Positions 1,614 through 5,594 of a DNA stretch of 5,594 nt are shown piece by piece. The position numbers and the translations under genes are program-made. Position 1 is the first letter of the stretch; every line of letters starts with the position of its first letter. The stretch comes from a virus (lineage: Duplodnaviria; Heunggongvirae; Uroviricota; Caudoviricetes), in the IMG/VR virus record IMGVR_UViG_2663762627_000005, positions 1-5,594 of that record, one strand, 5' to 3'. A model generated the notes under the pieces. That model was not told where the DNA came from. It saw nothing but the letters and a program-made list of their open reading frames with translations, and did not search any database.

Positions 1614-1708
1614 CTGTTCACCTTAAGAAAAAAGATAAGTAATACAGTTAATTAAAGGGTGAACAGTTGAAGGTCTGACTGTTCACCGTCTGTTCACCAC
1701 TGTTCACC
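1614..1708. repeat. Cluster of five CTGTTCACC repeats (P4 type I iteron core TGTTCACC); crr-like alpha-binding region
   Basis: Direct copies at 1614-1622, 1679-1687, 1690-1698 and 1700-1708 (the last three phased at 11 and 10 bp), plus an inverted copy GGTGAACAG at 1658-1666. The octamer TGTTCACC is the alpha-protein binding iteron of P4 ori and crr. Confidence 0.7.
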
Positions 1709-2788: not shown

Positions 2789-3012
2789 GACACACCACCA
2801 TTACTGCCCGTGACCTCGAATGCCTTGAACATATGCGCAACGTCGGTCAGCTCGTCAGCGAACTGATGCAGGTGCAGGACTGTGCCACTGTTCGCCGTGA
2901 CCCGGCGCAGCAGTTACAGCTCACCTCCGTGATTTACCTTATGACCGCCCAGCTCGACGGCATGGTCGAACGCTGCAATCAGCACTGGCTGACCGGGGAG
3001 GACAACGTATGA
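2785..3012 (+). CDS. Hypothetical small protein (75 aa from ATG 2785; the track's GTG 2779 start gives 77 aa)
   Basis: GGAGG at 2773-2777 is 7 nt upstream of ATG 2785. The ATG overlaps the kil stop (ATGA). No recognisable motif. Occupies the slot where P4 carries small left-operon genes such as eps. Confidence 0.6.
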
Positions 3013-3329
3013 AACAGCCATTACCGCCCGTATTACGCGCCGCGCTCTATCGCCGTGCAGTGGCCTGTGCCTGGCTGACCCTGTGCGAACGCCAGCACCG
3101 TTACCCGCGCCTCACCCTTGACGCGCTGGAAAGCGCCATTGCTGCCGAGCTGGAGGGCTTCTACCTGCGCCAGCATGGAGAGGAAAAAGGTCGCCAGATT
3201 GCCTGTGCACTGCTCGAAGATTTAATGGAAGCCGGACCACTGAAAGCTGCCCCGTCGCTGTCCTTCCTCGGGCTCGCGGTGATGGATGAACTTTGCGCCC
3301 GCCATATCACCGCACCGGTACTGCACTGA
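3009..3329 (+). CDS. Hypothetical protein (106 aa), translationally coupled to the upstream ORF
   Basis: GGGGAGG at 2995-3001 is 7 nt upstream of ATG 3009. The ATG overlaps the upstream stop (ATGA). The ORF ends 14 nt before the primase start. No recognisable motif. Confidence 0.65.
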
Positions 3330-3343
3330 GGGAGAAAATAACA

Positions 3344-5440
3344 ATGAAAATGAACGTAACGGAAACCGTAAAACAGGCGTGCGGTCACTGGCCGCGTATT
3401 CTCCCGGCGCTGGGTGTGAAGGTGATTAAAAACCGGCATCAGGCCTGTCCGGTGTGCGGCGGCTCTGACCGCTTTCGCTTTGACGATAAAGAGGGGCGCG
3501 GGACGTGGTACTGCAATCAGTGCGGCGCGGGTGACGGGCTTAAGCTGGTCGAAAAGGTGTTCGGTGTAAATCCGTCTGAGGCCGCCCGGAAGGTGAACGC
3601 CGTCACCGGTAATCTGTCGCCGGTTGCCCCGGAAGCGATTGCGGCCGCAGAAGCCGGAACCGATGCCGACCTCCAGGCGGCGGCCGCGCTGGCCGTCAGG
3701 CTCATGGAGAAAACCCGCCCGGCCACCGGCAACGCCTACCTCACCCGCAAGGGTTTCCCCGACCGGGAATGTCTGATGCTCACAGCCATACATAAAACCG
3801 GCGGCGTGACGTTCCGCGCCGGTGATGTGGTTGTCCCGCTGTATGACGATACCGGGGCGCTGGTTAACGTTCAGCTTATTAATGCTGATGGTCTCAAACG
3901 CACCCTGAAAGGCGGTCAGGTCAAAGGGGCATGTCATATCATCGAGGGGCAGAAACAGCCCGGAAAACGCCTGTGGATTGCGGAGGGTTATGCGACCGCG
4001 CTCACCGTGCATCAACTGACCGGCGAAACCGTCATGGTGGCGCTGTCCTCCGTGAACCTCCTTTCTCTGGCGAGCCTTGCCCGTCAGAAGTCCCCGGCCT
4101 GTCAGATTGTCCTCGCCGCCGACCGTGACCTTAACGGCGACGGCCAGAACAAAGCCGCAGCGGCCGCAGGAGCCTGCGAGGGCATTGTTGCCCTGCCACC
4201 GGTGTTCGGTGACTGGAATGATGCGTTTATAGAAAAAGGTGAGGAAGCCACGCGGAAAGCCATTCATAACGCCATCCGGCCACCGGCACAAAGTCCGTTC
4301 GACACCATGAGCGAGGCGGAATTTACCGCCATGAGCGCCAGCGACAAGGCGATGCGGGTGCATGAGCATTACGGCGAAGCGCTGGCTGTGGACGCGAACG
4401 GCCAGCTTCTGTCCCGCTATGAAAACGGCATCTGGAAAAATATCCCTGCCGCCACTTTTTCACGAAATGTTGCTGATTTATTCCGGCGCGTGCGTGCCCC
4501 GTTCTCGTCGGGGAGAATCACCTCAGTGGTGGAGACGCTGAAGCTGATTATTCCTCAGCAGGAGGCACCGGCGCGCCGTCTGATTGGTTTTCGCAACGGG
4601 GTACTTGATACCCAAAGCGGCCTGTTCAGCCCGCACAGTAAATCACACTGGCTGCGCACGCTGTGCGACGTGGATTTTACCCCGCCGGTGGAAGGGGAAA
4701 CGCTGGAGACCCACGCGCCAAACTTCTGGCGCTGGCTCGACCGTGCCGCCGGTGGCAGACCGGAAAAACGCGACGTGATACTTGCCGCGCTGTTTATGGT
4801 GCTGGCGAACCGCTACGACTGGCAGCTCTTTCTCGAAGTCACCGGTCCCGGCGGAAGCGGTAAAAGTATTCTCGCCGAAATCGCGACCCTGCTCGCCGGA
4901 GAGGATAACGCCACGTCAGCCGATATCGACACACTGGAAGACCCGCGCAAGCGCGCATCCCTGACTGGTTTCTCGCTAATCCGTCTGCCTGACCAGGAAA
5001 AATGGAGCGGTGACGGGGCAGGACTCAAAGCCATCACCGGCGGCGATGCGGTCTCAGTTGACCCGAAATACCAGAACCCGTACTCAACACATATTCCGGC
5101 GGTGATTCTGGCCGTGAACAATAACCCGATGCGCTTCACTGACCGCAGCGGCGGTGTGTCACGCCGCCGGGTGATTATTCATTTCCCGGAGCAGATTGCC
5201 CCGGAGGAACGCGACCCGCAGCTCAGGGATAAAATTGCGCGCGAGCTGGCCGTTATCGTGCGCCAGCTTATGCAGAAATTCAGCGACCCGATGGCAGCGC
5301 GCACTCTGCTCCAGTCGCAGCAGAACTCCGATGAAGCGCTCAGCATCAAGCGTGATGCTGACCCGACGTTTGATTTTTGTGGCTATCTGGAAATGCTGCC
5401 GCAGACCAACGGGATGTTGGTAATGGTGCCAACTTACTGA
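3344..5440 (+). CDS. alpha: P4 alpha-type primase-helicase, C-terminus apparently replaced by IS1-derived codons (native codons end near 5418)
   Basis: Start ATG 3344 (MKMNVTETV...) with GAGGGAG upstream; the track's earlier ATG 3293 lies inside the preceding gene. Zinc-ribbon CPVCGG...WYCNQCG, primase EGYATA motif, TOPRIM-like AADRDLNGDG, and Walker A GPGGSGKS (about 4844-4867). The last 7 codons and the stop (5420-5440) lie inside the IS1 terminal inverted repeat. 699 aa versus about 777 aa for P4 alpha. Confidence 0.88.
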   Translation: MKMNVTETVKQACGHWPRILPALGVKVIKNRHQACPVCGGSDRFRFDDKEGRGTWYCNQCGAGDGLKLVEKVFGVNPSEAARKVNAVTGNLSPVAPEAIAAAEAGTDADLQAAAALAVRLMEKTRPATGNAYLTRKGFPDRECLMLTAIHKTGGVTFRAGDVVVPLYDDTGALVNVQLINADGLKRTLKGGQVKGACHIIEGQKQPGKRLWIAEGYATALTVHQLTGETVMVALSSVNLLSLASLARQKSPACQIVLAADRDLNGDGQNKAAAAAGACEGIVALPPVFGDWNDAFIEKGEEATRKAIHNAIRPPAQSPFDTMSEAEFTAMSASDKAMRVHEHYGEALAVDANGQLLSRYENGIWKNIPAATFSRNVADLFRRVRAPFSSGRITSVVETLKLIIPQQEAPARRLIGFRNGVLDTQSGLFSPHSKSHWLRTLCDVDFTPPVEGETLETHAPNFWRWLDRAAGGRPEKRDVILAALFMVLANRYDWQLFLEVTGPGGSGKSILAEIATLLAGEDNATSADIDTLEDPRKRASLTGFSLIRLPDQEKWSGDGAGLKAITGGDAVSVDPKYQNPYSTHIPAVILAVNNNPMRFTDRSGGVSRRRVIIHFPEQIAPEERDPQLRDKIARELAVIVRQLMQKFSDPMAARTLLQSQQNSDEALSIKRDADPTFDFCGYLEMLPQTNGMLVMVPTY

Positions 5441-5594
5441 TTTAGTGTATCATGGTGTTTTTGAGGTGCTCCCGTGGCTTCCATCTCCATCAGTTGTCCC
5501 TCCTGCTCAGCTACTGAAGGCGTGGTGCGTAACGGTAAAAGTACTGCCGGACATCAGCGCTATCTCTGCTCTCACTGCCGTAAAACATGGCAAC
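5419..5594 (+). mobile_element. IS1 insertion sequence, left end (terminal inverted repeat GGTAATGGTGCCAACTTACTGAT) and start of insA; continues beyond the window
   Basis: 5419-5441 matches the IS1 terminal inverted repeat apart from a few variant positions, followed by the characteristic TTTAGTGTAT...GGTGTTTTTGAGGTGCTCC leader and insA. Confidence 0.9.
5474..5594 (+). CDS. insA: IS1 InsA (transposition repressor / N-terminal transposase part), 5' portion only
   Basis: GTG start at 5474. Translation (V/M)[39 protein letters not shown] matches the InsA N-terminus (zinc-finger CPSC...CSHC). ORF runs off the right edge. Confidence 0.9.

Follow-up and report, generated by a model that had tools for sequence, protein, structure and literature searches.

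Probable loss of autonomous replication in a P4-like satellite prophage of Escherichia coli whose alpha primase-helicase gene is truncated by IS1 at codon 692

RESULTS

Alpha reading frame and its junction with IS1

The window analyzed in this study is the whole 5,594-nucleotide stretch of IMG/VR virus record IMGVR_UViG_2663762627_000005, which corresponds to a complete draft contig (CDRR01000355.1, 5594 bp; assembly GCA_000940455.1). It contains part of a P4-like satellite element in which the gene for the alpha primase-helicase runs into the left end of the insertion sequence (IS) IS1, and the contig breaks off inside IS1 because short-read assemblies break at repeats. The following features lie around the junction.

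3344..5440, plus strand: truncated alpha reading frame, 698 aa and then a stop (assigned from Pfam domains and motif positions)
5410..5418, no strand: IS1 target site CGGGATGTT, left copy of the 9-bp duplication (single copy in uninterrupted alleles)
5419..5594, plus strand: left 176 nt of an IS1 isoform, up to the contig end (100% identical to L008, 1501-1676)
5419..5441, plus strand: IS1 left terminal inverted repeat GGTAATGGTGCCAACTTACTGAT, containing the TGA at 5438-5440 (assigned from the sequence and the L008 copy of IS1)
5474..5594, plus strand: 5' part of insA with a GTG start, in the same direction as alpha (assigned from NCBIfam matches)

The alpha frame opens with ATG at 3344 on the plus strand and continues without an internal stop to TGA at 5438-5440. 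Homology to uninterrupted alleles ends precisely at 5418, and the left end of IS1 begins at the next base. An original prediction, made from the sequence of the window, had described a frame open from 3344 into an IS1 inverted repeat starting at about 5419 and closed at 5438-5440, with a bona fide IS1 end abutting alpha; both points hold, and the start of IS1 is now placed at exactly 5419. The product is 698 aa long instead of the 699 aa given at that time, and consists of native residues 1-691 followed by LVMVPTY. At the junction, codon 692 changes from the native TTT (Phe692) to TT/G (Leu), after which VMVPTY and the stop codon are supplied by the IS1 inverted repeat. The VMVPTY portion had thus been attributed to the IS correctly, but the non-native tail has seven residues, the leucine deriving from the junction codon. 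In total, 86 native residues (692-777) are missing, and the net length is 79 residues below that of the 777-aa intact allele and of P4 alpha, close to the shortfall of about 80 residues that had been estimated.

The identity of the inserted element is well defined. The 176 nt at 5419-5594 match the left end of a complete 768-bp IS1 copy of E. coli SW07091 without a single difference (100% identity, E = 3e-86), a match that is too extensive to be a chance resemblance. A terminal inverted repeat of the IS1 type (GGTRATG...CCAACTTA...) is present at the boundary with host sequence (5419-5441); IS1 inverted repeats are about 23 bp long. The start of insA (5474-5593) matches the N-terminal zinc-binding domain of IS1/IS1595 (NCBIfam NF050000, E = 1e-10, above its cut-off), and the insA portion also gives a partial match to NF033558 (transpos_IS1). 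The full copy of this isoform (L008) is 768 bp long, with intact insA and insB frames and an A6C frameshift site. It differs from IS1A at 54 of 768 positions (93% identical), 15 of these differences falling within the 176 nt visible in the window, and from K-12 IS1F at 36 of 768 positions. Compared with IS1A and the IS1 consensus, the window shows only the first 176 nt of the element, with the same inverted repeat and the same insA zinc-finger open reading frame (ORF).

An identical junction to this IS1 isoform was found in three further draft assemblies, JNNA01000100 and CCBZ01000056 (L003 and L004) as well as CDRN01000070 (L005). All four contigs stop 154-285 nt from the IS1 left end. Since an identical junction recurs in independent assemblies, the join between alpha and IS1 can be considered real.

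Domains retained and lost in the truncated protein

Alpha is essential for P4 replication and combines origin recognition, helicase, and primase functions (PMC8628076, citing Ziegelin 1993; PMC2777425); its C terminus forms a DNA-binding domain of the winged-helix type (PMC2777425, citing Yeo et al. 2002). In the window protein, the primase part is represented by a zinc ribbon (Zn_Ribbon_Prim, PF08273; residues 30-66, E = 2e-18) and a Toprim domain (Toprim_3, PF13362; 210-300, E = 3e-12), and the helicase part by D5_N (PF08706; 366-467) and the superfamily 3 (SF3) P-loop domain DUF5906 (PF19263; 500-608). The TIGR01613 model scored 98.2 bits, slightly below its cut-off of 108.7. Individual motifs are also kept, namely, the zinc ribbon C35-C61, the acidic Toprim residues E214 and D260-D262, a Walker A motif GPGGSGKS at 501-508 with G506/K507 as in P4, and RRR at 607-609 as the arginine finger. 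Retention of the primase and helicase motifs had been anticipated and is borne out by the Pfam matches.

The C-terminal domain PF03288 is absent from the Pfam matches of the window protein, while the intact 777-aa allele carries it at residues 670-768 (E = 5e-16). In the Protein Data Bank (PDB), the intact allele has a single strong match, 1KA8, the crystallized origin-binding domain of P4, which carries the deposition name "putative P4-specific DNA primase"; its 100 residues align to 671-770 (E = 1e-59). The cut after residue 691 removes 79 of these 100 residues and leaves 671-691 alone. Within the lost 86-residue tail, 78 residues (91%) are identical to P4 alpha. Judged by these alignments, the lost segment is the origin-binding winged-helix domain of P4 alpha, in agreement with the original prediction. 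Ziegelin et al. reportedly mapped ori recognition to the C-terminal third of alpha in 1995.

The nearest uninterrupted allele is that of E. coli PSS-16, which is 99.9% identical to the window over 4600-5418 and encodes 777 aa. Alpha has this length in PSS-16, in seven other near-identical elements, and in P4, and no intact homologue ending at the position equivalent to the truncation was found among them; aligned to these proteins, the window alpha lacks residues 692-777. On the basis of sequence, the window gene is best classified as a disrupted member, that is, a pseudogene, of the P4 alpha-type primase-helicases and not as a functional full member.

IS1A at the same site in other genomes

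We noticed that the same position is occupied by IS1 in 2 of 5426 complete RefSeq E. coli genomes, those of the United Kingdom blood isolates AF14 and AF10. Two further carriers, CP049609.1 and JAAMJS010000001.1, were reached through the neighboring DUF5375 gene. The isoform in these genomes is IS1A, and the copies are likewise 768 bp long. In L001, L014, L016, and L022, the structure is ...CAGACCAA CGGGATGTT (IS1A, 768 bp) CGGGATGTT TATAGGTAATGCC..., with the rest of the alpha codons, crr-like iterons, and ypjA on the right; metagenome contig L012 shows the right-hand portion of this arrangement, with alpha codons and crr-like iterons. IS1A at this site is a simple insertion with a 9-bp duplication, within the 8-9 bp described for IS1 (PMC12428005). 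The National Center for Biotechnology Information annotation pipeline (PGAP) labels these loci as an alpha pseudogene without its C terminus, an IS1 transposase, and a winged-helix fragment without its N terminus. A repeat of CGGGATGTT and then the rest of alpha, the arrangement to be looked for on the far side of IS1, was thus found around the IS1A copies, whereas the contig of the window itself ends inside IS1.

For the isoform present in the window, the right junction of a simple insertion would read ...AAGTTGGAGTCATTACC-CGGGATGTT-TATAGGTAATGCC. Exact left and right junction patterns gave 0 matches in the genome_contigs and in the viral_contigs collections, and a scan of metagenomes for them returned one contig, L012, whose right junction is of the IS1A type. 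A synthetic query composed of the variant IS1 right end and the remnant of alpha matched just the two IS1A genomes among the complete E. coli genomes. The exact 87-aa ORF of the remnant was found on 58 contigs in a public protein collection.

Remaining part of the satellite element

Besides alpha, the window contains psu (partial), delta, sid, an alpA-like gene, an Ash/Icd-like gene, and a DUF5375 gene, which together form a P4-like core in the order known from P4. The features relevant to replication and gene order are as follows.

1615..1708, no strand: ori-like cluster, five exact copies of the P4 type-1 iteron TGTTCACC (exact-match count against expectation)
3009..3329, plus strand: DUF5375 gene, homologue of P4 ORF106 (cnr), directly upstream of alpha as in P4

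The five exact copies of TGTTCACC at 1615-1708 compare with 0.14 expected. This cluster lies between sid and the alpA-like gene, matching the place of P4 ori (9310-9413). Uninterrupted relatives, and those with IS1A, have a second iteron cluster beyond the stop codon of alpha, like crr in P4; crr lies beyond the window contig, and an intact copy was seen in sister genomes only.

In sister contigs L003 and L004, the element extends from int, next to smpB/ssrA, through three cargo genes, psu, delta, sid, the alpA-like gene, the Ash/Icd-like gene, and a 75-aa gene to the cnr-like gene, and the lengths of all of these genes equal those in uninterrupted relatives. The element is 0-2 single-nucleotide polymorphisms (SNPs) away from an uninterrupted relative. 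Because the sister-contig genes from int to cnr are intact and the distance to an uninterrupted relative is so small, IS1 looks like the only visible lesion in these sister contigs and a recent one, and not like a sign of general decay. The description of the element as a decaying prophage in the original prediction was therefore overstated, and general decay was rejected as an explanation.

The leftmost bases of the window require separate consideration. Bases 1-59 come from the unrelated chromosomal gene yehI, which they match at 100% identity, and psu follows from about base 65 after a small number of untemplated bases plus one additional C. This join is most likely a chimeric contig end rather than a second lesion, because L003 and L004 are continuous through psu. 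One other contig shows foreign sequence on its left: L005 (CDRN01000070.1) matches the window only from 1453 rightwards, and its bases 1-7627 are a patchwork of fragments of an RND pump, secG, and the C-terminal domain of a mannitol dehydrogenase plus a 512-aa ORF without a Pfam match, which suggests a misassembly.

Several other observations concern the element outside alpha. Rfam matches on the plus strand of the window at 2299-2539, comprising c4-a1b1 (2299-2351), isrK (2312-2389), and C4 antisense RNA (2452-2539), mark a P4-type CI RNA immunity region; they lie inside the 183-aa Ash/Icd-like ORF at 2237-2788, for which some gene callers give only 64 aa. The cargo between int and psu (L003, 2710-5836; L001, 1-581), outside the window, occupies the place of gop-beta-cII in P4 and encodes proteins of 368 aa (without a Pfam match), 112 aa (DUF4325/STAS-like), and 166 aa. 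These three genes might form a defense cassette. Relatives with an uninterrupted alpha have lesions elsewhere: the alignment shows single-base deletions at window positions 369 and 262, psu is shortened to 158 aa in L019 (about 2868-3344), and neither psu nor int was called as a gene in L023.

Insertion history of the two IS1 isoforms

Both isoforms occupy the same 9-bp target in the same orientation. To reconstruct their history, 5338 aligned element bases from 15 genomes were compared, which yielded 29 variable sites, 9 of which only could be polarized with an outgroup. The four sequences with the variant IS1 (the window, L003, L004, and L005) share the derived states 1572C and 3672T with the uninterrupted L020 and are 1-2 SNPs apart from it. 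The IS1A group (L001, L014, L016, and L022) has 1324A, 2977C, and additionally 1170T in common with the uninterrupted L015, at a distance of 2-3 differences. The empty site is clean in both L020 and L015. Two independent insertions by two isoforms are favored because each interrupted group nests beside a different empty-site relative; they constitute the simplest history according to these SNPs, and the site is likely a hot spot.

Less probable is an alternative in which IS1 entered this site once, in an ancestor, and its sequence was subsequently replaced by gene conversion with a different IS1 copy as donor. In its favor, the two isoform groups do not differ in target, orientation, or flanks, and IS copies within one genome are known to undergo sequence homogenization. 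However, a single origin requires at least two precise excisions and a conversion tract over at least the first 262 nt (18 differences), which makes it less parsimonious than two insertions.

At a distance of 4 nt on the right side of the target lies the native sequence GGTAATGCCAGC, which is similar to the IS1 terminus GGTAATG(GT)GCCAAC; within 12.8 kb of the locus, GGTAATG is present at just three places. As this resemblance was noticed post hoc, a role of GGTAATGCCAGC as a targeting signal through homology to the IS end is only suggestive.

A different alpha allele in L009 (Logan SRR31874080_15, 2990-3010), which was reached via P0001, the nearest protein representative to the 87-aa remnant, carries a deletion of 8 bp, CCAACGGG, in overlap with the IS1 target and is without an IS. 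Its alpha is split into 698 aa and an overlapping 87-aa C-terminal ORF. The deletion could be a coincidence, a result of local instability, or the footprint of an imprecise excision. Many stand-alone C-terminal alpha fragments with foreign N termini were also present in the protein collection (among them P0002, P0003, P0016, P0020, and P0026); such fragments are joined elsewhere in the protein, ahead of YLETLPQ or ahead of (Y)LAYMEANG, and P0016 has a cnr-like DUF5375 N terminus fused to the alpha tail. Judging from these sequences, public data seem to contain repeated cases of alpha disruption in P4-like elements. It is doubtful whether this can be extended to the view that CGGGATGTT is a recurrent IS1 hot spot, hit independently by two isoforms and perhaps guided by GGTAATGCCAGC, at which loss of replication is recurrently tolerated or favored.

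DISCUSSION

We propose that a 768-bp IS1 inserted at codon 692 of alpha in an ssrA-integrated P4-like satellite prophage of E. coli, truncating alpha and thereby probably abolishing replication of the element; the probability that we assign to this reading is about 0.88. After transposition into codon 692, the frame leads through seven codons across the junction and the left inverted repeat to a stop. The resulting 698-aa protein keeps the zinc-ribbon/Toprim primase and the SF3 helicase and has lost about 80% of the winged-helix domain, which in P4 binds the iterons of ori and crr. From what is known of P4 biology, such a protein should not recognize the TGTTCACC iterons of ori or crr. Without origin recognition, the element would be unable to replicate autonomously after excision or helper infection and would persist as a prophage copied passively with the chromosome. 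A co-resident P4-type alpha could rescue it in trans, which is plausible because ori and, in sister genomes, crr are intact and because the domain that was lost is 91% identical to that of P4.

Three points weigh against this proposal. The loss of origin binding and replication rests on homology to P4, the yehI fragment shows that the assembly of the window contig is not fully reliable, and the right junction of the window isoform was seen nowhere, since every contig with this isoform ends inside IS1. The last point leaves room for an IS1-mediated deletion or inversion in the genome of the window, so that IS1 would mark a rearrangement (an adjacent deletion, an inversion, or inter-IS1 recombination) and neither the 3' remnant of alpha nor crr would lie directly to the right. 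In line with this, the four contigs stop 154-285 nt from the IS1 left end, all recovered right junctions are of the IS1A type, and such strains hold dozens of IS1 copies (39 places in AF14). We nevertheless consider a rearrangement improbable, as alpha sequence gives way to IS1 precisely at the end of the element and at the 9-bp target used by the simple insertions of IS1A. The exact 87-aa remnant ORF is also present on the 58 public contigs, although these are not tied to strains of the window type. Alpha would be truncated identically in either case, leaving the functional conclusion unchanged.

An assembly chimera at the junction, with an alpha that is really intact in the strain, is far less probable still. 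The foreign 59-nt yehI piece at the left end of the same contig and the foreign left part of L005, which has a similar accession prefix, would fit such an artifact, but the identical junction occurs in four assemblies with four accession prefixes (JNNA, CCBZ, CDRN, and CDRR), and the chimera was rejected. Furthermore, the IS1 inverted repeat starts with its first base right at the join, single reads could cover both the junction and the bases at IS positions 4 and 8 that are specific to the isoform, and complete genomes carry IS1 at exactly this site. Least probable of all is that the form of about 700 aa represents a natural short alpha, with relatives that end at the equivalent position undisrupted. 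L009 also yields a 698-aa product without an IS, yet its gene is of the 777-aa type, frameshifted by a deletion of 8 bp, and the 87-aa C-terminal ORF still follows. All uninterrupted relatives and P4 have 777 aa with PF03288, and the last seven residues of the window protein come from the junction and the IS1 inverted repeat. A natural short alpha was rejected on the basis of these 777-aa relatives, the L009 frameshift, and the IS-derived tail.

Insertion of IS1 into alpha is a knockout of an already known kind. Satellite and insertion sequence are both textbook entities, and RefSeq already annotates the equivalent lesion as a pseudogene. The finding has practical consequences for annotation: the gene should be labeled an IS1-disrupted alpha pseudogene and not "P4-specific DNA primase," and the element should be scored as a probably nonreplicating, otherwise intact P4-like satellite. 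Such rescoring affects counts of functional satellites as well as predictions of which elements are mobilized by a P2-type helper. The element may also serve as a convenient natural C-terminal deletion of alpha for testing domain function. If the doubtful view of a hot spot with tolerated loss were true, the satellite and its cargo genes would be locked into the chromosome. Insertion of two IS1 isoforms at the same site would offer a small, clean natural example of IS1 target preference.

Relative to P4, the intact allele is collinear with P4 alpha, both proteins having 777 aa and aligning without gaps at 84% identity. They have in common a zinc ribbon, a Toprim domain, an SF3 helicase, and a C-terminal winged helix, the last of which is identical to 1KA8 at 93 of 100 residues as counted in the alignment. 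The gene order is P4-like, with a cnr-like DUF5375 gene upstream of alpha and crr-like iterons downstream, and the iterons TGTTCACC are shared. In contrast to P4 alpha, the window alpha stops at native residue 691 and is without 692-777. The element also differs from P4 in its delta protein (81 aa versus 166 aa) and in the cargo genes between int and psu. It is integrated at ssrA, near ypjA, whereas the integration site of P4 is leuX.

A survey of P4-like elements (de Sousa and Rocha 2021, PMC8628076) described elements that lack alpha or have pseudogenes in the core and discussed their possible defectiveness. The term "insertion sequence" was not found in its text, which was not searched for "IS1." The survey documents frameshift pseudogenes of alpA, and the window element is a case of the same class of core-gene pseudogenes. 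It differs from the cases in the survey in that both the cause of the disruption and its exact site are defined.

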